DNA of 40,277 bases from a virus (taxonomy: Duplodnaviria > Heunggongvirae > Uroviricota > Caudoviricetes). This document shows, one piece after another, positions 5,644 through 21,575 of this stretch. The notes under the pieces are model-generated. The model searched no databases. It had not been told where the DNA came from and worked only from the letters and a program-made list of their open reading frames with translations. Where the stretch lies: the IMG/VR virus record IMGVR_UViG_2563366843_000005. One strand, 5' to 3'. The translations under genes were made by a program, and so were the position numbers. Numbering within the stretch: position 1 is the first letter of the stretch; each line of letters begins with the position of its first letter.

Positions 5644-6507
5644 TCATTTCGCATCTACAATAAATAACCTGTTTATCTGGCCTTTTTTAACAGTAGCCTT
5701 TGCGGTTATAGTGAATACTGCAGATGGATCACCTTTGGTTGATATATATGCACTAAGAGCTCTAATATACGGGTTATTCTTCTTTCCTGCAGCTGGATCG
5801 CTAATTTCAGCAGTGATTCTCTTTTTTGAGTCATCACCATCTAAAATTATTTTAGCTGTCATATTTTGTGCATCAAATTCTGTAAGAAAAGCACGATACT
5901 CACGAAGACCGAGAACTTCATCATCATCAAGCCTATCAATTTCAGCTTTATCTCTCTCGTTAACTTTTAGAAGGCAGCCGTCAACATTTGTTGCAACACT
6001 TATCTGATCGCAAGTATTACCAATAGGTGATACTGCCTGCCTTACAGAGGGGCGAAGCTCTACAGCCATTCGGTCAATCAAAGAGATCAACTTATCAATG
6101 GTTCCAGCATCCTTGTTTCCTAGTGCCTCTATGGCCTTTTCAAGTGACTGCTGCAAAGCTTTCATTTCATCTTTCTTGTTAGAATTTCTCGCAAAAATAT
6201 ATTGTAGTATTGCGCCAAGTATAGTTGCGGCGATCCCCGAGAACAACTGGTTCTGAGTGGCGAAGTTAAGAACTGCTTCAAGAGTAAAGCAGTTAGCTTT
6301 TGCTTCGCGTGCGTAAACCTTAACTTCCTGATAATTAATGTATTTACTATATTTTTGTGTAACAGAGAAAGAAGCTGCTGTTGAGAGAACTTTAGAAAAA
6401 CCCTTTAGGGATTCTCCTAGGCAGTTCAAATCTATTTCATGATTTAAAGCATCTTTTCCGTCATACCTAAGAGAGATTTTTATATCCTGTAAAGCGTCAC
6501 AATCCAT
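5644..6507 (-). CDS. hypothetical protein in the rexAB-equivalent slot; candidate exclusion or defence protein
   Basis: 287-aa ORF, visibly AT-rich, 66 bp downstream of cI on the same strand, followed by a terminator; one central hydrophobic segment ([18 protein letters not shown]); no recognisable family. Confidence 0.6.
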
Positions 6508-6573: not shown

Positions 6574-7266
6574 TTATCCATGTTTCCTGTACGTCTGGGG
6601 CATGCTCCCAATAACCTTACCGAAGATGAACACCCGGTTCATCTCGTCTTTCTCGATCGGGTCCCACGGTGAGTAGCTCTTGTTATCAGAGATAACCAGC
6701 AGCTTATCCTTCATCATTTGCAGGCGCTTTACATGGGCGGTGTCGTCGTACAGAAACGCATAGATGCCATCACCGTCGAAAGATTTAACCGTGATATCAA
6801 CGAACAGCAGATCACCTGGTTCGATCGTTCCTGACATGCTGTCACCACGCACGTTAATGATGCGGATATTTTCCGCCTTCCTGCCATCGAACATGTGACG
6901 AGCATCGTCAAACGAGTACTCAACCGAGCGTAGGACTTCTACAAACTCACGGTTGATGACTCCCGGCCCGGCACTCACTTCTATATCAAGAACGTCAATC
7001 TTGAAGTATTTGGAATGGTTGACAGTAGGCTTCCCTGATTGTTGACCGTCATTTCTCATCGGGCCTATGCCTGATGAGAGCCACTCTGTTCGAACACCCA
7101 ATGCATTAGCTATTTCAACAATTTTTGTTGAGCCGCGCGCGTTGCCGCTTGTCAGTCTCCAGATTGTTGGTTGAGCTACGCCAGACGCCTTTGCAAGAGC
7201 GCCTTGAGACATCCCAGATTGTTCCATCGCTAGGTTTAAGCGATCAGCAAGAGTTTCTTTTTTCAT
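6574..7266 (-). CDS. cI: CI-type prophage repressor (HTH plus S24 LexA-like peptidase domain)
   Basis: N-terminal HTH; Ala-Gly cleavage site (VSAGPG); GDSM serine and downstream KRL lysine of S24 peptidases; start set at ATG 7264-7266 (leaderless relative to putative PRM) rather than the upstream ORF start at 7323. Confidence 0.85.
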   Translation of the reverse strand: MKKETLADRLNLAMEQSGMSQGALAKASGVAQPTIWRLTSGNARGSTKIVEIANALGVRTEWLSSGIGPMRNDGQQSGKPTVNHSKYFKIDVLDIEVSAGPGVINREFVEVLRSVEYSFDDARHMFDGRKAENIRIINVRGDSMSGTIEPGDLLFVDITVKSFDGDGIYAFLYDDTAHVKRLQMMKDKLLVISDNKSYSPWDPIEKDEMNRVFIFGKVIGSMPQTYRKHG

Positions 7267-7275
7267 AAGTTTTAA

Positions 7276-7345
7276 TTTATACGCTTGCGTATTGATGGTC
7301 AAAACACGTTTTGCTATTGTCATGGTTAATACGCATTGCTATTAT
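7276..7345. promoter_or_regulatory. OR operator region with divergent PRM (leftward) and PR (rightward; -35 TTGTCA 7317-7322, -10 TATTAT 7340-7345)
   Basis: TTGC-core 8-mers at 7285, 7311 and 7336 at the same spacing as at pL; 14-bp palindromes ATACGCTTGCGTAT (7279-7292) and CAAAACACGTTTTG (7300-7313); PRM-like TTGACC-15-TATAAA on the minus strand ending next to the cI ATG. Confidence 0.55.
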
Positions 7346-7376
7346 TCATTCATTGTAATACCAATAGGAATTGATA

Positions 7377-7604
7377 ATGACAAATCAAACCATTCAACTC
7401 GCAATCAGTATTACAGGTAGTCAAAAACGACTGGCAGATCTATGCGGTGTAGCCCAGCCCACTGTTTGGCGTTGGCTACACGGTGGCGGAATTGATGCCC
7501 GCTATGTAATGAAAATTGTCTCAGCCACTGGTGGAAAGATTAAGCCAGCAGATATTCGTCCCGACCTCGCACCATTGTTTAACGCGAGTAATTCTGCCGC
7601 CTAA
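7377..7604 (+). CDS. cro: Cro-like HTH regulator
   Basis: Small HTH protein (QKRLADLCGVAQPTVWRW) divergent from cI and directly downstream of PR. Confidence 0.7.
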   Translation: MTNQTIQLAISITGSQKRLADLCGVAQPTVWRWLHGGGIDARYVMKIVSATGGKIKPADIRPDLAPLFNASNSAA

Positions 7605-7634
7605 TCTGCGGCGTTAACTGATAAGGCGATGATT

Positions 7635-8174
7635 ATGCAACCACTTACATACCAACAGACTAGCGGATTTAGCCCGACTGCGGTGATAAATCGTTCTCAA
7701 ATAAAACAGGTGCCAGGCCACGAAAAAATTCGTGATGCCGTCCGCGCCTGGTCTGCTGAAGATAATCAGGATGTAGTTGCCGCACTCATTGTGAATGAGT
7801 ATCGAGCACAGGGCGGCGGCACCATCGATTTTCCTGATGATGTCAGTCGTGCACGCCAGAAGCTGTTCCGCTTCCTCGATAACAAATTCGATTCTGAAAA
7901 ATACCGAAATAACGTGCGTGAACTGACCCCGGCAATTCTGGCGGTATTACCGCTGGAATATCGCGGCCACCTGGTTGAGCAGGATAGCTTCATGGCTCGG
8001 CTGGCTGAAATGGAAAAGGAACTCAGTGAGGCAAAGCAGGCGGTCATTCTCAACGCACCACGCCACCAGAAACTGAAGGAGATGAGTGAAGGCATTGTGT
8101 CGATGTTTCGAGTGGACCCGGATCTGGCTGGTCCATTGATGGCGATGGTCACCACCATGCTGGGGGCAATATGA
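7635..8174 (+). CDS. hypothetical early regulatory protein in the cII position
   Basis: 179-aa ORF between cro and O; much larger than lambda CII with no recalled similarity to it. Confidence 0.4.
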   Translation: MQPLTYQQTSGFSPTAVINRSQIKQVPGHEKIRDAVRAWSAEDNQDVVAALIVNEYRAQGGGTIDFPDDVSRARQKLFRFLDNKFDSEKYRNNVRELTPAILAVLPLEYRGHLVEQDSFMARLAEMEKELSEAKQAVILNAPRHQKLKEMSEGIVSMFRVDPDLAGPLMAMVTTMLGAI

Positions 8175-8260
8175 CAGGTTCAAAAATGGCGAAAGTCGGT
8201 CTGCGGGAACAGAACCGACTTTCAGGTGCAAATCGTAACACACTCATTGCGGGAGGAATT

Positions 8261-9190
8261 ATGGCAAACACTGCTGAGATATTCAATTTTCCAGTGCCGG
8301 ATGCGGCACAAAAGGAGCCGCGCGTGGCAGATCTCGATGATGGTTATACGCGCATTGCAAATGAGTTGCTGGAAGCTGTAATGCTGGCCGGATTAACACA
8401 GCACCAGCTTCTGGTCTTCCTGGCTGTCATGCGCAAAACATATGGCTTTAATAAAAAACTGGATTGGGTGAGCAACGAGCAACTTTCCGAGTTGACCGGG
8501 ATATTGCCGCACAAATGTTCTGCTGCAAAAAGTGTTCTGGTAAAGCGTGGGATTCTTATTCAGAGCGGGCGGAATACCGGCATTAATAATGTGGTCAGTG
8601 AATGGTCAACATTACCCGAATCAGGTAAGAAAAATAAAGTTTACCTGAAAGAGGTAAATTTACCTGAATCAGGTAAAAAAAGTTTACCCAAATCAGGTAA
8701 AGACGTTTACCCGAATCAGGTAAACACAAAAGACAAACTAACAAAAGACAATATAAAACCTTTTTCGTCCGAGAATTCTGGCGAATCCTCTGACCAGCCA
8801 GAAAACGACCTTCCTGTGGAGAAACCAGATGCTGCAATTCAGAGCGGCAGCAGGTGGGGGACAGCAGAAGACCTGACCGCCGCAGAGTGGATGTTTGACA
8901 TGGTGAAGACCATCGCGCCATCAGCCAGAAAACCGAATTTTGCAGGGTGGGCTAACGATATCCGCCTGATGCGTGAACGTGACGGACGTAACCACCGCGA
9001 CATGTGCGTGCTGTTCCGCTGGGCATGCCAGGACAACTTCTGGTCCGGTAACGTGCTAAGTCCGGCCAAACTCCGCGACAAGTGGACCCAACTCGAAATC
9101 AACCGTAACAAGCAACAGGCAGGCGTGACAGCTAGCAAACCAAAACTCGACCTGACAAACACAGACTGGATTTACGGGGTGGATCTATGA
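8261..9190 (+). CDS. O: replication initiator protein O
   Basis: N-terminus aligns with lambda O (VADLDDGY..., LRKTYG...); ori iterons inside the gene; start set at ATG 8261 after GGAGG. Confidence 0.85.
   Translation: MANTAEIFNFPVPDAAQKEPRVADLDDGYTRIANELLEAVMLAGLTQHQLLVFLAVMRKTYGFNKKLDWVSNEQLSELTGILPHKCSAAKSVLVKRGILIQSGRNTGINNVVSEWSTLPESGKKNKVYLKEVNLPESGKKSLPKSGKDVYPNQVNTKDKLTKDNIKPFSSENSGESSDQPENDLPVEKPDAAIQSGSRWGTAEDLTAAEWMFDMVKTIAPSARKPNFAGWANDIRLMRERDGRNHRDMCVLFRWACQDNFWSGNVLSPAKLRDKWTQLEINRNKQQAGVTASKPKLDLTNTDWIYGVDL
8611..8766. repeat. origin of replication: four direct iterons (TACC[C/T][G/A]AATCAGGTAA) plus a degenerate copy, followed by an AT-rich segment
   Basis: Iterons at 8613, 8661, 8685 and 8708, degenerate copy near 8641; AT-rich 8725-8766; lies inside O as in ori-lambda. 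Confidence 0.8.
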
Positions 9191-9888
9191 AAAACATCGC
9201 CGCACAGATGACTAACTTTGACCGTGAGCAGATGCGTCGGATCGCCAACAACATGCCGGAACAGTACGACGAAAAGCCTCAGGTACAGCAGGTAGCGCAG
9301 ATCATCAATGGTGTGTTCAGCCAGTTACTGGCAACTTTCCCGGCGAGCCTGGCTAACCGTGACCAGAATGAACTGAACGAAATCCGCCGCCAGTGGGTTC
9401 TGGCTTTCCGGGAAAACGGGATCACCACAATGGAACAGGTTAACGCTGGAATGCGCGTAGCCCGTCGGCAGAATCGACCATTTCTGCCATCACCCGGGCA
9501 GTTTGTTGCATGGTGCCGGGAAGAAGCATCCGTTATCGCCGGACTGCCAAACGTCAGCGAGCTGGTTGATATGGTTTACGAGTATTGCCGGAAGCGAGGC
9601 CTGTATCCGGATGCGGAGTCTTATCCGTGGAAATCAAACGCGCACTACTGGCTGGTTACCAACCTGTATCAGAACATGCGGGCCAATGCGCTTACTGATG
9701 CGGAATTACGCCGTAAGGCCGCAGATGAGCTTGTCCATATGACTGCGAGAATTAACCGTGGTGAGGCGATCCCTGAACCAGTAAAACAACTTCCTGTTAT
9801 GGGCGGTAGACCTCTAAATCGTGCACAGGCTCTGGCGAAGATCGCAGAAATTAAAGCTAAGTTCGGACTGAAAGGAGCAAGTGTATGA
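9187..9888 (+). CDS. P: replication protein P (DnaB helicase loader)
   Basis: 233 aa, matches lambda P over its full length. Confidence 0.95.
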   Translation: MKNIAAQMTNFDREQMRRIANNMPEQYDEKPQVQQVAQIINGVFSQLLATFPASLANRDQNELNEIRRQWVLAFRENGITTMEQVNAGMRVARRQNRPFLPSPGQFVAWCREEASVIAGLPNVSELVDMVYEYCRKRGLYPDAESYPWKSNAHYWLVTNLYQNMRANALTDAELRRKAADELVHMTARINRGEAIPEPVKQLPVMGGRPLNRAQALAKIAEIKAKFGLKGASV

Positions 9889-10187: not shown

Positions 10188-10254
10188 TGAAACAGGTGAG
10201 TTGATTTCAAACTGTAGTACAATTCTCTCCAGTTTGAACAGGAAAGAATATGCT

Positions 10255-10587
10255 ATGAACCCTTATATTTATCTTGGTGGTGCAATACTTGCAGAGGTCA
10301 TTGGTACAACCTTAATGAAGTTTTCAGAAGGTTTTACACGGTTATGGCCATCTGTTGGTACAATTATTTGTTATTGTGCATCATTCTGGTTATTAGCTCA
10401 GACGCTGGCTTATATTCCTACAGGGATTGCTTATGCTATCTGGTCAGGAGTCGGTATTGTCCTGATTAGCTTACTGTCATGGGGATTTTTCGGCCAACGG
10501 CTGGACCTGCCAGCCATTATAGGCATGATGTTGATTTGTGCCGGTGTGTTGGTTATTAATTTATTGTCACGAAGCACACCACATTAA
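10255..10587 (+). CDS. emrE: small multidrug resistance (SMR) efflux transporter EmrE
   Basis: 110 aa from MNPYIYLGGAILAEVIGTTLMKFSEGF..., matching E. coli EmrE (a DLP12 prophage gene in K-12). Confidence 0.9.
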   Translation: MNPYIYLGGAILAEVIGTTLMKFSEGFTRLWPSVGTIICYCASFWLLAQTLAYIPTGIAYAIWSGVGIVLISLLSWGFFGQRLDLPAIIGMMLICAGVLVINLLSRSTPH

Positions 10588-10618
10588 AAATAATTTGTTT
10601 CTAAACGACTAAAATATG

Positions 10619-10650
10619 GAGGCTCTTATATTTATATGAGCCTCGTTTTA
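10619..10650 (+). terminator. putative intrinsic terminator after emrE
   Basis: Stem GAGGCTC/GAGCCTC with AT-rich 12-nt loop followed by a weak T-run. Confidence 0.45.
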
Positions 10651-10843
10651 TGCTTTTTGTTAATGTCTTTATTTTTTTATGTATTCTTTTGTGCTTTCAA
10701 GATTATGGCGTAAGAAAATTGCAATACGATTATTGTTGTATATTCAAGATAATGTGACCTTAATTGTCTTTTTAAATAAAAATTAAACAAAAATTATATC
10801 TCACCACTAAGGTTTATAAAAGCATACGTTAGCAGGTGTCACC

Positions 10844-12370
10844 ATGAAAAAAGCCATAGCATATATGCGATTTTCATCACCAGGTCAGATGTCTGGCGAC
10901 TCATTAAACCGACAGAGAAGACTTATTGCTGAATGGTTAAAGGTAAATAGTGATTATTATCTTGATACCATAACATATGAAGATTTAGGATTAAGTGCAT
11001 TCAAAGGAAAGCATGCACAATCAGGAGCTTTTTCGGAATTTTTAGATGCTATAGAGCATGGTTATATATTGCCAGGAACTACATTGTTAGTTGAAAGTCT
11101 GGACAGACTTTCAAGAGAAAAAGTCGGTGAAGCGATTGAGCGTCTGAAATTGATTTTGAATCACGGTATTGATGTTATAACTCTTTGCGATAATACAGTC
11201 TATAATATTGACTCTTTGAATGATCCATATTCATTAATAAAAGCCATACTTATAGCACAAAGGGCAAATGAAGAAAGCGAGATAAAGTCAAGTCGGGTTA
11301 AATTATCATGGAAGAAAAAACGGCAGGATGCACTGGAGTCAGGCACGATTATGACGGCGTCTTGTCCGAGATGGCTCTCCTTAGATGACAAAAGAACGGC
11401 TTTTGTTCCAGACCCCGACAGGGTGAAAACTATTGAGCTAATTTTTAAACTCAGGATGGAAAGGCGCTCATTGAATGCAATAGCCAAGTATTTAAATGAT
11501 CATGCTGTAAAGAATTTCTCAGGAAAAGAAAGTGCATGGGGACCTTCTGTAATTGAAAAATTATTAGCGAATAAAGCTCTGATAGGTATATGCGTACCTT
11601 CATATCGTGCAAGAGGTAAAGGAATAAGTGAAATCGCTGGCTATTATCCCAGAGTCATATCAGATGATTTGTTTTACGCTGTGCAGGAAATTCGGTTGGC
11701 ACCTTTTGGTATTAGCAATAGTAGCAAAAATCCTATGTTGATAAATCTACTTCGAACAGTTATGAAGTGCGAGGCTTGTGGTAATACCATGATTGTTCAT
11801 GCGGTATCTGGAAGTTTGCATGGCTATTATGTTTGTCCGATGAGAAGACTGCATCGATGTGACAGGCCATCAATAAAGAGAGATTTGGTTGATTATAATA
11901 TCATTAATGAGTTGCTTTTTAATTGTAGTAAAATCCAACCAGTTGAAAACAAGAAAGATGCTAATGAAACTTTAGAGTTGAAAATTATTGAGCTCCAGAT
12001 GAAAATTAATAATTTAATTGCTGCATTATCTGTTGCGCCTGAAGTTACCGCTATAGCAGAAAAAATCAGAGTATTAGATAAGGAATTACGAAGGGCTTCT
12101 GTATCATTAAAAACTTTGAAGAGTAAAGCGGTGAGCTCACTTGGTGATTTTCATGCTATTGACTTAACCAGTAAAAATGGACGAGAGTTATGCCGTACAC
12201 TTGCCTATAAAACATTCGAAAAAATCATAATTAATACGGATAATAAAACCTGTGATATCTATTTTATGAATGGCATTGTTTTTAAACACTATCCTTTAAT
12301 GAAAGTAATATCCGCCCAGCAGGCGATAAGTGCTCTCAAATATATGGTTGATGGTGAGATTTATTTCTAA
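10844..12370 (+). CDS. ybcK: large serine recombinase (resolvase/invertase family), YbcK-like
   Basis: 508 aa, low-GC; N-terminal resolvase-type domain (AYMRFSSPGQ, catalytic Ser context) plus large recombinase domain with Cys-rich zinc-ribbon region. Confidence 0.85.
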   Translation: MKKAIAYMRFSSPGQMSGDSLNRQRRLIAEWLKVNSDYYLDTITYEDLGLSAFKGKHAQSGAFSEFLDAIEHGYILPGTTLLVESLDRLSREKVGEAIERLKLILNHGIDVITLCDNTVYNIDSLNDPYSLIKAILIAQRANEESEIKSSRVKLSWKKKRQDALESGTIMTASCPRWLSLDDKRTAFVPDPDRVKTIELIFKLRMERRSLNAIAKYLNDHAVKNFSGKESAWGPSVIEKLLANKALIGICVPSYRARGKGISEIAGYYPRVISDDLFYAVQEIRLAPFGISNSSKNPMLINLLRTVMKCEACGNTMIVHAVSGSLHGYYVCPMRRLHRCDRPSIKRDLVDYNIINELLFNCSKIQPVENKKDANETLELKIIELQMKINNLIAALSVAPEVTAIAEKIRVLDKELRRASVSLKTLKSKAVSSLGDFHAIDLTSKNGRELCRTLAYKTFEKIIINTDNKTCDIYFMNGIVFKHYPLMKVISAQQAISALKYMVDGEIYF

Positions 12371-12834
12371 ATAATGATCTCGGATTTTAAGTTATGCTAT
12401 GGTGATAAAGTGCAAGACAGAATTAATTATCTTTGACGAAACTTAATGGGTAATTACTTTGTTTGCTCCCACAAGCGAGTTTTGTACGGCTGTATTGGGG
12501 TAGTAAATGAGCTATACAATCTTAATCATTTGTTAGGTGAGAACTCTTGGTCGCAGATTCAAATACTGAAAATACGTGACAAATTATTATGAGCAAAATG
12601 GTGTATGTCACGTATTTTGAATGATAGGTTAAAAAATAACACCGACTTTCGTAGGTATTACTAATAATAAAGCAGAGTTTTTAGATAGTATCAATGTGCT
12701 TTGTGTATATTGTGGCAAATAATTGGGTTGGGGGTACAATTGTGATTGCTTTTGCATAAAAATTGCGCCTTTATGCATAATGAGATAAAGGAATATCAAA
12801 TAAAATAACGATAGGTCATAACAAAGAGGTTTTT

Positions 12835-13386
12835 ATGAAAACACTTATCGTTTCAACTGTATTGGCATTCATAACATTTTCTGCGCAGGCTGCAGCATTT
12901 CAGGTCACTAGTAATGAAATAAAAACAGGAGAGCAACTTACAACGTCTCATGTCTTTTCTGGATTTGGGTGTGAAGGTGGTAATACATCGCCCTCATTAA
13001 CCTGGTCTGGTGTTCCTGAAGGTACCAAAAGCTTTGCCGTAACTGTATATGATCCAGATGCACTTACAGGCAGTGGTTGGTGGCATTGGACTGTTGTTAA
13101 TATTCCAGCAACAATAACATATTTGCCCGTTGATGCAGGGAGACGTGATGGAACAAAACTGCCGACTGGTGCTGTTCAAGGCCGAAATGATTTTGGCTAT
13201 GCTGGGTTTGGTGGCGCATGTCCTCCTAAAGGAGATAAACCACATCATTACCAGTTTAAAGTATGGGCTCTAAAAACTGAAAAGATTCCTGTAGATTCTA
13301 ACTCCAGCGGAGCGTTAGTTGGTTATATGCTTAATGCTAATAAAATCGCAACCGCTGAGATAACACCAGTTTATGAGATAAAGTAG
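12835..13386 (+). CDS. ybcL: periplasmic PEBP/UPF0098-family protein YbcL
   Basis: 183 aa with N-terminal signal peptide (MKTLIVSTVLAFITFSAQA); recalled match to DLP12 YbcL. Confidence 0.85.
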   Translation: MKTLIVSTVLAFITFSAQAAAFQVTSNEIKTGEQLTTSHVFSGFGCEGGNTSPSLTWSGVPEGTKSFAVTVYDPDALTGSGWWHWTVVNIPATITYLPVDAGRRDGTKLPTGAVQGRNDFGYAGFGGACPPKGDKPHHYQFKVWALKTEKIPVDSNSSGALVGYMLNANKIATAEITPVYEIK

Positions 13387-13395
13387 GGTGAGAGT

Positions 13396-14193
13396 ATGCT
13401 GGCAAGAGGTAAGACTAACTTAAAGATCGAAGAAATACGGATGCATAAACATCATGAGATTCATAGGGTTAAGCCTCTTATGCCAGCTTTGTGTCGTATC
13501 CGTCAGGGAAAGAAAGTTATCAATTGGGAGACGCATACTTTAACTGTTGATAATAATCAAATAATATTATTTCCTTGTGGTTATGAATTTTATATTGAGA
13601 ATTATCCTGAAGCAGGGCTTTATCTTGCAGAAATGCTTTACTTACCCATTGATTTAATTGAGAGTTTCCAAAAACTTTATACGGTAACTGATCAAATACG
13701 TAACAAAACAAGTTTCTTTTTACCTCAGAATCCTGAGTTAATATATTGTTGGGAGCAACTAAAAACATCTGTTTCCCGAGGCTTCTCAACTAAAATTCAG
13801 GAGCACTTAGCAATGGGCGTTCTACTTTCGTTAGGAGTGAATCATGTTAATCATTTACTTTTATCATATAGTAAACAATCATTGATAAGTCGTTGTTATA
13901 ACCTGCTGCTATCCGAACCCGGCACAAAATGGACAGCAAACAAGGTTGCTCGATATCTCTACATTTCTGTTTCTACATTACATCGCCGTCTAGCAAGCGA
14001 GGGGGTAAGTTTCCAAAGTATACTGGACGATGTGAGGTTAAATAATGCGTTGTCTGCTATACAAACGACGGTAAAACCTATAAGCGAGATTGCCAGAGAA
14101 AATGGTTATAAGTGTCCTTCTCGTTTTACTGAAAGATTTCATAATCGTTTTAATATAACACCAAGAGAGATAAGAAAAGCTTCCAGAGAGTAA
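13396..14193 (+). CDS. ybcM: AraC-family transcriptional regulator YbcM
   Basis: 265 aa with C-terminal AraC-type HTH; low-GC. Confidence 0.8.
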
Positions 14194-14309
14194 AAGTGTT
14201 TTAAGAAGGAGCAATTCTATCGATTTTGATTTTGGGAAATCAACACGGCATAATTATGTCACCGGAGCCTGAACAACTCCGGTGACTTCTGCGCTAAACG
14301 GGGACGTTT

Positions 14310-14411
14310 ATGCGCACATACAATCCAAACTCTCTTCTCCCTTCACAGATGCAGAAATGCACCTGCAATTCTTTGCATCTAGCGTTTGACCTCTGCGGAG
14401 GTGAAGCGTGA
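14310..14411 (+). CDS. ylcH: small protein YlcH-like (33 aa)
   Basis: Short [36 protein letters not shown] overlapping the ybcN start; below the ORF-track threshold, translated by hand. Confidence 0.35.
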
Positions 14412-14863
14412 ACCTCTCACAAGACGGCATCAAATTACATCGCGGCAACTTCACCGCTATCGGTCGGCAGATCCAGCCTTATCTGGAGGAGGGCAAATGC
14501 TTTCGCATGGTGCTTAAACCGTGGCGTGAGAAACGCAGTCTTTCCCAGAATGCACTCAGCCACATGTGGTACAGCGAAATCAGTGAATACCTCATCAGCA
14601 GGGGTAAAACGTTCGCCACTCCAGCTTGGGTAAAAGATGCTCTCAAACACACATATCTCGGTTATGAAACCAAAGACCTGGTTGATGTCGTAACCGGTGA
14701 TATCACCACTATCCAGTCGTTACGCCATACCTCCGATCTTGATACCGGAGAGATGTATGTCTTCCTGTGTAAGGTTGAAGCCTGGGCGGTGAATATTGGC
14801 TGCCACCTGACTATTCCGCAGAGCTGCGAGTTCCAGCTGCTCCGCGACAAGCAGGAGGCGTAA
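14408..14863 (+). CDS. ybcN: YbcN-like protein (DLP12 nin-region protein)
   Basis: 151 aa, GTG start preceded by GGAGG; recalled match to E. coli YbcN. Confidence 0.8.
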
Positions 14864-21164: not shown

Positions 21165-21575
21165 TTAGCGTGGAAAGATTTGTGTAGTGTTCTGAATGCT
21201 CTCAGTAAATAGTAATGAATTATCAAAGGTATAGTAATATCTTTTATGTTCGTGGATATTTGTAACCCATCGGAAAACTCCTGCTTTAGCAAGATTTTCC
21301 CTGTATTGCTGAAATGTGATTTCTCTTGATTTCAACCTATCAAAGGACGTTTCTATAAGATGCGTATTTCTTGAGAATTTAACATTTACAACCTTTTTAA
21401 GTCCTTTTATTAACACAGTGTTATCGTTTTCTAACACAATGTGAATATTATCTGTGGCTAGATAGTAAATATAATGTGAGACATTGTGACGTTTTAGTTC
21501 AGAATAAAACAATTCACAGTTTAAATCTTTTCGCACTTGATCGAATATTTCTTTAAAAATGGCAACCTGAGCCAT
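21165..21575 (-). CDS. ybcV: YbcV-like protein (ORF extends to 21698; likely start at Met 21575)
   Basis: 136 aa from [11 protein letters not shown]...; position after bor as in DLP12. Confidence 0.55.

Follow-up and report, generated by a model that had tools for sequence, protein, structure and literature searches.

A phi80/YdaT-type CII in a DLP12-like lambdoid phage, with a predicted operator and antisense promoter inside its own gene

The DNA considered here, referred to as the window, is a stretch of 40,277 nucleotides that represents a DLP12-like lambdoid phage. It is 96–97% identical to Bievrevirus coliphages such as 4A7 and to their relatives (D2, 1W, 3W, Perceval, and the PhiR series) over the aligning parts, which amount to 51–61% of the window's first 25 kb. 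The genes of the control region are ordered cI (on the opposite strand), a cro-like gene, cII, O, and P. The cI repressor gene, encoding an HTH and an S24 peptidase domain, lies on the minus strand at 6574–7266 (Pfam Peptidase_S24 and HTH_3; annotated with 230 aa in 4A7); its reading frame is open to 7323 with a likely start at 7266, and a promoter-like site running from 7302 to 7274 would make the cI mRNA leaderless. The cro-like gene of the YdaS/P22_Cro type (7377–7604, plus strand; Pfam YdaS_toxin, E = 1e-14, and P22_Cro; start placed according to the phage 4A7 annotation) is the upstream partner of cII in the pR operon. The replication gene O (8171–9190) follows cII and is in turn followed by the replication gene P (9187–9888). 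A YdaT-family gene located after a cro/ydaS-like gene, opposite the repressor and before the replication genes, is found in the window and in nine other loci of the family.

The cII gene, of the phi80/YdaT type, extends on the plus strand from the ATG at 7635 to the TGA stop at 8172–8174 and encodes 179 aa, which confirms an earlier, sequence-only reading that had placed a gene of this length between cro and O; the assignment draws on the open reading frame, Pfam PF06254, PHROG 163, and annotated phage relatives. An AAGG Shine-Dalgarno sequence at 7624–7627 is spaced for this ATG, while another in-frame ATG at 7629, which would give 181 aa, is too near to it. Relatives from many genera have an ATG at the position of 7635, a GAAAGG-type ribosome site, a length of 178–180 aa, and a protein beginning with MQ or MH. 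Conservation of the upstream ATG, of the ribosome-binding site, and of the length led us to reject the alternative starts ATG 7629 and GTG 7683; against GTG 7683 there is also codon 17, which is CTG in some relatives. The same reading had described the protein as acidic, a description that holds only weakly: aspartate and glutamate slightly outnumber lysine and arginine (24 versus 22), and the pI of 5.95 is marginal.

The family of the protein is evident from several searches. YdaT_toxin (PF06254) is the sole clear Pfam match (103.6 bits against a cut-off of 21, E = 8e-30), residues 17–179 match PHROG 163 (phrog_163), 'CII-like transcriptional activator', with E = 1e-66, and a sequence search of the PDB retrieved both solved YdaT structures, 8bt1 and 3c4r; the earlier reading had named the right family, YdaT-like, to check. 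By tblastn against sequenced phages, 16 coliphage records encode proteins annotated as 'cII' or 'CII-like transcriptional activator' with 95–98% identity, found in 4A7, D2, 1W, 3W, Perceval, and the PhiR series. Identity is 66% to phi80 CII over the full length, 68% to mEp237 CII, and 53% to the cII proteins of HK225 and HK639. The homology of CP-933P YdaT to phi80 CII had already been pointed out by Jurenas et al. (PMC8630535). No NCBIfam model matches the protein. Homology to lambda CII was ruled out, as the sequence-only reading had supposed: no Pfam family other than YdaT_toxin matches at E ≤ 0.01, and a comparison of lambda CII with the family profile by hhalign gave a probability of 1.3%. 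The TTGC-N6-TTGC direct repeat of the lambda pRE type is absent from 7560–7720.

The 179-residue protein is a phi80-type CII belonging to the YdaT family, a regulator found in place of lambda CII in many lambdoid phages. The kind of gene is already known and annotated, and only the regulatory architecture described below constitutes a testable prediction. The gene is best named cII (phi80/YdaT type) rather than 'toxin YdaT' or 'hypothetical', and the lysis-lysogeny module of the window is a standard alternative cassette among lambdoid phages. The earlier label 'atypical' is overturned by clear homology to CII-type regulators that have been characterised and share a conserved DNA-binding domain, namely CP-933P YdaT, Rac YdaT, and phi80 CII (PMC9986795, PMC11879457, PMC8630535).

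An AlphaFold model of the monomer, built on 36 relatives, has a mean pLDDT of 79, with values mostly of 86–94 in the HTH core and two lower stretches (72–76). The modelled helices span residues 29–43, 45–58, 70–82 (after an 11-residue loop), 88–104, 107–113, and, in the case of a long helix, 119–138. In a Foldseek comparison with the PDB, the six best matches are all YdaT chains (3c4r and 8bt1) with a probability of 1.00, 117–120 aligned columns, and TM scores of 0.64–0.68 normalised to the target; nothing else is significant. By model and homology, the protein is predicted to consist of an all-helical POU-like HTH DNA-binding domain at residues ~29–113 followed by the long helix, which in the solved YdaT relatives builds an antiparallel four-helix bundle that yields a tetramer (PMC9986795). 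The earlier statement that no HTH is obvious does not stand against the helix-loop-helix pair 45–58/70–82 of the model and the YdaT identity of all the best structural matches.

The second helix of this pair, SRARQKLFRFLDN (codons 70–82, 7842–7880, plus strand), is the predicted recognition helix, based on the model and on conservation in the subfamily. Residues R72, R74–R79, and L81–N83 are invariant in the 36 relatives, and F80 is replaced by tryptophan or tyrosine in five. R79, itself invariant in the 36 subfamily members, aligns with R57 of Rac YdaT and with an arginine of CP-933P YdaT, while its neighbours differ from those in Rac (F78 for H56, F80 for W58); the H56A/R57A substitution in Rac YdaT abolishes DNA binding (PMC11879457). 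Classical YdaTs (Rac, CP-933P, and about ten cluster representatives of 138–163 aa) align from residue ~29 and lack the N-terminal extension of residues 1–26 (7635–7712, plus strand), which is predicted to be disordered (pLDDT <50). The 179-aa subfamily further adds two strongly conserved C-terminal helices (143–178); conservation across the protein peaks within them, at APRHQKLKE-SEGI. The few invariant residues of the N-terminal tail (I18 and Q22, with N19 and R20 nearly so) coincide with a DNA element within the gene.

This element is a predicted operator, the YdaT-type inverted repeat GTGATA-AATCGT-TCTCAA (GTGATAAATCGTTCTCAA) at 7683–7700, which occupies codons 17–22 and was recognised by constraint at synonymous sites. 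Across 63 genome loci encoding relatives of 40–75% identity, all 58 full-length relatives have a box nTGAT(A/T)-N6-nnTCAn in codons 17–22, at coding-sequence positions +49 to +66. Constraint was measured in 54 loci dereplicated at 95% nucleotide identity, over 174 codon columns with a median third-position entropy of 1.5 bits. Only 5 of the 174 columns have zero third-position entropy, and three of these, codons 9, 17, and 21, are columns in which the amino acid varies (seven, three, and six residues, respectively). The third base is T in codon 9 across its seven amino acids and T in codon 21 in 54/54 loci across its six. The Ile18 codon is ATA in 42 loci, ATT in 11, and ATC in none; elsewhere, ATC accounts for 252 of 453 isoleucine codons (Fisher p = 1e-17). 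Within the box, T50, G51, and A52 are invariant, T53 is present in 53/54 loci, T63 and C64 are invariant, and A65 is present in 46/54. The peptide varies in distant relatives (LIFENQ, LISQNQ, VIYRNQ, MIYQNR) with the half-sites kept, and the retained TGAT...TCA is the core of the published YdaT half-sites. The window's own copy has 4 mismatches in 12 to TTGATT-N6-AATCAA, and its right half retains only TCA.

To the left of the box, bases A23, T27, and A28 are invariant in 54/54 loci, which on the minus strand corresponds to TAnnnT, that is, T-12, A-11, and T-7 of a -10 hexamer. These are the three most informative positions of the sigma-70 -10 hexamer. In the window, the -10-like hexamer is TAGTCT (7657–7662, minus strand), 20 bp left of the box. 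Assuming a start 7 nt past the hexamer, leftward transcription would begin near 7650 and the centre of the box would fall at about -41.5, which is the usual position for class II activators. No -35 match is present at this putative promoter, as would be expected of an activator-dependent one. Such an arrangement fits a pRE-like promoter that would read leftward toward cI and be activated from about -41.5. In the 179-aa subfamily, the reading frame begins 48 nt further upstream than in classical YdaTs and crosses the predicted promoter, which would explain the disordered N-terminal tail.

The same geometry recurs in distant members of the family. Nine classical YdaT loci were compared, namely Rac, the CP-933P-like phage Tritos, and seven cluster representatives, with protein identities of 28–52%. 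The box overlaps the start codon in 9/9, and an antisense TAnnnT lies to its left in 9/9, at 20 bp in six loci and at 21 bp in three. Against a background of 1.3% per position, or ~2.5% per locus, finding nine of nine by chance would have a probability of ~4e-15 if the loci are independent. These sequence comparisons support a family-wide design in which an operator and an adjacent leftward promoter would sit at the 5' end of the activator's own gene, with transcription passing through cro toward the repressor.

Published work describes both binding and activation by YdaT proteins. CP-933P YdaT binds TTGATT-N6-AATCAA as a tetramer (PMC9986795) and activates a promoter between ydaS and ydaT (PMC8630535). 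The target of Rac YdaT is ATGATTCATGAAAATCAA, located over its own start codon, and Rac YdaT raises racR expression 29-fold in a box-dependent manner (PMC11879457). The two proteins cross-react despite 30% identity (PMC9986795, PMC11879457). In the published Rac model, YdaT acts on PracR4, ~190 bp from the box (PMC11879457), and the published reading of CP-933P places the operator downstream of, or covering, the start of PRE; neither the Rac nor the CP-933P start was mapped under YdaT induction. These published placements speak against a promoter adjacent to the box.

Further boxes are present in the window. The strict pattern TTGAT-N8-ATCAA occurs three times against 0.08 expected, a count reached in 0/300 first-order Markov simulations; at up to 3 mismatches, TTGATT-N6-AATCAA is not significantly enriched in the window (33 versus 27 expected). 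One box, TTGATA-ATGACA-AATCAA (7371–7388), lies over the cro ribosome site and start codon and has one mismatch to the published box. It occurs only with this type of cro and is degenerate in 4A7, and is an uncertain candidate for an additional YdaT operator; its placement over the cro start resembles the binding of Rac YdaT over the ydaS start. Another, TTGATT-TCAACC-TATCAA (21326–21343), is the third palindromic box and lies inside a DUF1398 gene. No YdaT box was found near int/xis (1–1400), relaxed patterns included, and a pI analogue is therefore missing.

An oop/M3-RNA-like antisense unit is located at the cII-O junction (8183–8286, minus strand) and consists of a promoter, TTGAAT-17-CATAAT (8286 to 8258), followed by a hairpin and T-run (8223–8183). 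The hairpin has a folding energy of -24.6 kcal/mol (z = -4.1), and the promoter block aligns with the phi80 M3 RNA region, which is annotated as 'homolog of lambda oop RNA'. By analogy with lambda and phi80, this antisense RNA probably limits cII expression.

The remaining strict box, TTGATT-TTGGGA-AATCAA (14226–14243), is perfect, being an exact match to the CP-933P operator (PMC9986795). It covers -35 to -18 of a near-consensus promoter ahead of ylcH-ybcN-nin-Q (TTGATT-17-CATAAT, with the -10 CATAAT at 14249–14254 on the plus strand), so that the box itself supplies the -35 and the upstream part of the spacer, and it is predicted to be a repression site. The promoter is followed by a leader hairpin, TCACCGGAG/CTCCGGTGA (14259–14285, plus strand), conserved in ~120 viral contigs, and then by the small ORF ylcH and ybcN-ninE-rusA-Q. 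The record X92588 of phage 82 annotates a -35, a -10, and a 'possible regulator-binding site' for this promoter. The hairpin was considered as a nut/boxB site and rejected, being unlike the phi80 nutL core CACGTAAACGTG; an Rfam search of the leader gave a single sub-threshold chance hit.

Conservation of the box was followed in 120 viral contigs chosen solely by a 31-mer within the leader, not by the box. Among the 119 elements with enough upstream sequence, the box is perfect in 83 and has one mismatch in 28, with more than 25 different spacers. Over 79 contexts, information content is 1.6–1.9 bits in TTGATT, 1.2–1.9 in AATCAA, 0.2–1.1 in the spacer, and ~0 in the mosaic left flank. A YdaT-type cII is present in only 46 of 50,697 sequenced-phage records, and 18 of the 19 full-genome records with the leader element also have one (53–98% identity); the single record without, from Klebsiella phage ST11-VIM1phi8.2, covers only 41% of the leader element. 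Of the viral contigs that reach 9 kb or more upstream of the element, 14 have a YdaT gene, one has a lambda-type cII and no box, and two have neither. A few contigs (L174, L180, L260) have the nin box and no detectable YdaT, and one YdaT contig (L243) has a different nin promoter. The co-occurrence of the nin box with YdaT-type cII may partly reflect common descent.

Because binding across -35 to -18 should repress, we propose from the position of the box that the CII analogue would also hold back the nin/Q pathway through the predicted 14226–14243 operator. It is awkward for the model that a near-consensus nin promoter repressed by YdaT alone would be free of repression in a lysogen. No strict paQ analogue, in the sense of a box near the Q gene, was found; the nearest box, that of the nin promoter, lies 1.6 kb upstream of Q.

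Taken as a whole, the locus is best explained by the phage's CII-equivalent, a member of the phi80 CII/YdaT family that probably acts by the following mechanism, and in this explanation we have considerable confidence. The protein would be made early from pR, after cro, and would bind the inverted repeat within its own codons 17–22 (7683–7700). From about -41.5 it would recruit RNA polymerase to the leftward promoter that lacks a -35 and has the -10 TAGTCT (7662 to 7657), and the resulting transcript would run antisense through cro into cI, so that repression is established. Binding to the second, better operator at 14226–14243, over the -35 ahead of nin/Q, would reduce or delay the activation of late genes. 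More tentative, and judged somewhat short of an even chance, is the broader proposal that the YdaT family shares an undescribed architecture, an operator exactly 20–21 bp from the antisense -10 of a class II-type promoter, at or within the 5' end of the activator gene, to which phi80/DLP12-like phages add a stronger nin/Q operator. If this holds, the position assigned in the literature to the YdaT-activated promoter of Rac and of CP-933P has to be revised, and through the nin/Q operator the lysogeny factor would exert direct negative control on the late-gene pathway, as a functional counterpart of lambda paQ.

Other explanations of the protein and its boxes have to be weighed against this mechanism. 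The Pfam names 'YdaT_toxin' and 'YdaS_toxin' suggest that the protein is the toxin of a YdaS/YdaT toxin-antitoxin pair, and over-expression of Rac YdaT does lead to filamentation and death (PMC11879457). That toxicity is explained by activation of rcsA (PMC11879457), and the toxin-antitoxin idea itself originated with a prediction tool and found no support in experiments (PMC9986795, PMC8630535, PMC5917428). The modelled fold, which appears to be a DNA-binding HTH, the gene order cI-cro-X-O-P in a complete lambdoid phage, and the lack of any toxin or defence match for cII in PADLOC also argue against a toxin, a reading that is largely refuted and that we regard as very improbable. A regulator of a different kind is conceivable, in which the YdaT-family protein would serve only as a repressor or roadblock, for example on pR/cro, on replication, or on the nin promoter, with the in-gene bases kept for autoregulation rather than for a pRE. 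The window's best boxes do lie where an occupied site would be expected to repress, one across the start of cro (7371) and one across the nin promoter's -35 (14226); YdaT has been termed a 'repressor' (PMC9986795), and in Rac, racR expression falls when YdaT binds between racR and ydaS. This reading is unlikely given that box-dependent leftward activation was measured for both Rac and CP-933P YdaT (PMC11879457, PMC8630535), and that the antisense TAnnnT is fixed 20–21 bp from the box in every subfamily examined, which pure autorepression would not need.

The invariance of codons 9–22 could also have a cause other than a YdaT operator, such as an mRNA structure or translation signal, a recombination boundary, or the target of another protein. 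The first 22 nt of the cII gene are likewise unusually conserved at the nucleotide level, conserved linkers are common at lambdoid module boundaries, and the sequence left of the cII ribosome-binding site differs among relatives; the unrelated left flanks of the nin box in its various contexts fit the idea of a boundary linker as well. The invariant bases are, however, exactly the core of the YdaT half-site plus the three top -10 positions, at the spacing of a class II promoter, and the persistence of the half-sites where the peptide varies in distant relatives goes against a non-operator reading. Since the possible RNA pairing UGAU/UCA is too short for stability as well, we consider such a cause quite unlikely and retain the phi80/YdaT-type CII acting at an in-gene operator as the preferred explanation.

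The phi80 system is a close counterpart of this CII. The phi80 CII (NC_021190, 35671–36213; homologues in mEp237, HK225, and HK639) is alignable over all 179/180 residues at the 66% identity given above, and its gene occupies the same slot, between the cro-like gene 30 and the O-like gene 15. It carries the same in-gene box, ATGATAAACCGCGCTCAA, at +49, and the oop/M3 RNA promoter downstream of cII is shared. Ahead of ybcN, phi80 has a palindromic box, TTGATAAAACACTATCAA, a -10, and a leader hairpin with different stem sequences. The two phages differ in immunity (cI/cro) and in neighbouring genes; the window phage, a DLP12-like Bievrevirus, unlike phi80 has an insertion of emrE, ybcK, ybcL, and ybcM that separates ren from the nin region. 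In the open literature, nothing was found that describes DNA binding by phi80 CII.

The classical YdaTs are more distant. CP-933P YdaT (8bt1; also 3c4r) shares the Pfam family, the POU-like HTH fold, and the long helix after the domain, and its recognition helix can be compared with that of the window's CII (ARNTQKIFRW against ARQKLFRF). Its gene follows the cro analogue ydaS and has an operator of the TTGATT-N6-AATCAA type at its own 5' end (PMC9986795). The protein is only 26–30% identical to the window's CII, has 141 aa, and lacks the conserved C-terminal helices 143–178; it also lacks the N-terminal extension, and the box therefore overlaps the start codon and not codons 17–22. In the CP-933P-like phage Tritos, the nin-region box was not found. 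Rac YdaT (E. coli K-12 b1358; 140 aa) is 36% identical over residues 29–122, with R57 equivalent to R79, and the Rac locus has a box over the ydaT start with an antisense TATGAT, at 1,420,651–1,420,656 of NC_000913.3, exactly 20 bp from it. Rac YdaT activates transcription of the repressor gene, as predicted for the window's CII, and has further binding sites between racR and ydaS and at the host rcsA promoter (PMC11879457).

Lambda CII (PF05269) represents a different solution in the same slot with the same circuit logic. The leftward promoter is antisense within the first codons of the activator, TTGC-N6-TTGC lies in cII codons 4–8, and the oop antisense RNA is found at the 3' end of cII. 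The protein has no detectable homology to the window's CII; it is basic, has 97 aa, and recognises direct rather than inverted repeats. From the known pRE start, we take the centre of the lambda box to be at about -32.5, across the -35, versus the predicted position of about -41.5 here. The sequence-only reading had suspected a decision module mechanistically unlike that of lambda. The parts do differ (the fold, the tetramers of the published relatives, the inverted repeat, and the predicted position), but the logic looks the same.

The observation that started this analysis is partly confirmed and its interpretation partly supported, and what is added are predictions of how operator and promoter are arranged, together with a possible second target. 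The regulator family is common in the prophages of Enterobacteriaceae, with thousands of database members, and precise predictions for it are useful; with synonymous mutations, the part played by the DNA target could be told apart from that of the protein. Should the predictions be confirmed, the divergent promoter placements published for Rac and CP-933P would be reconciled, and a convergent circuit design would emerge between two unrelated types of CII.

The reading frame of the repressor gene cI is open on the minus strand from position 7323, and its start is likely the ATG at 7266, which yields a protein of 230 amino acids and matches the annotation in 4A7, an isolated Bievrevirus coliphage closely related to the window phage. 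Transcription from a promoter-like site on the same strand (TTGACC-17-TAAATT, 7274-7302) would start at or next to this ATG; the position of the site therefore implies a leaderless cI mRNA, like those made from lambda pRM and CP-933P paaR2. The cI-cro intergenic region contains a 28-nt imperfect inverted repeat (7317-7344 and 7356-7383) and, within 7317-7383, direct repeats of 16-17 nt (AA[TC]ACG..TTGCTATT), which presumably together constitute the OR operators. This region also contains the predicted pR, TTGTCA-17-TATTAT, whose -10 is extended by a TG.

The 30-nt gap between cro and cII is accompanied by a small GC hairpin, GCCGC-ctaatct-GCGGC, that lies across the cro stop codon (7596-7612), lacks a T-run, and bears no likeness to the phi80 nutL core. 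Many relatives carry similar GCCGC..GCGGC hairpins 5' of cII, such as gccgcttaacggcggc. The cII-O junction harbors an antisense transcription unit resembling oop and M3 RNA (8183-8286, minus strand), the promoter of which is conserved with phi80, and folding of its terminator hairpin gives -24.6 kcal/mol (z=-4.1).

The nin module has at its left edge a conserved unit (14226-14420) in which a palindromic box is followed by a near-consensus promoter, then by a hairpin, and finally by ylcH. The hairpin has a 9-bp stem and the conserved loop CCTGAACAA, and was already described as a 'possible regulator-binding site' in the GenBank entry of phage 82 (X92588). The loop of a second hairpin holds the Shine-Dalgarno sequence of ylcH, a 33-codon ORF. 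The flank to the left of the unit differs between phages and displays no relatedness.

Between ren and the nin region lies a block of cargo genes (10201-14193), as is also the case in DLP12 of E. coli K-12. Its products are an SMR transporter resembling EmrE, a ybcK-like large serine recombinase of 508 aa, a ybcL-like member of the PEBP family, and a ybcM-like regulator of the AraC type. The rexAB-like position adjoining cI is occupied by a gene for a 287-aa protein with DUF7946 and DUF7947 domains (5644-6507, minus strand), whereas 4A7 has other genes in this slot. The sole PADLOC match of the protein is a weak one to the candidate system PDC-S42 (E=1.5e-4), and the gene may be a prophage-encoded defence gene.

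A further near-perfect YdaT-type palindrome, TTGATTTCAACCTATCAA (21326-21343), is located between the lysis and packaging genes, within a ybcV-like DUF1398 gene that is encoded on the opposite strand, in surroundings with no obvious promoter. In the E. coli K-12 Rac prophage (L002 2152-2195; NC_000913.3 1,420,651-1,420,694), the hexamer TATGAT forms a good antisense -10 at a distance of exactly 20 bp from the YdaT-box described in the literature. The published placement of the YdaT-activated promoter is PracR4, ∼190 bp from the box; given this antisense -10, the promoter may instead adjoin the box itself.
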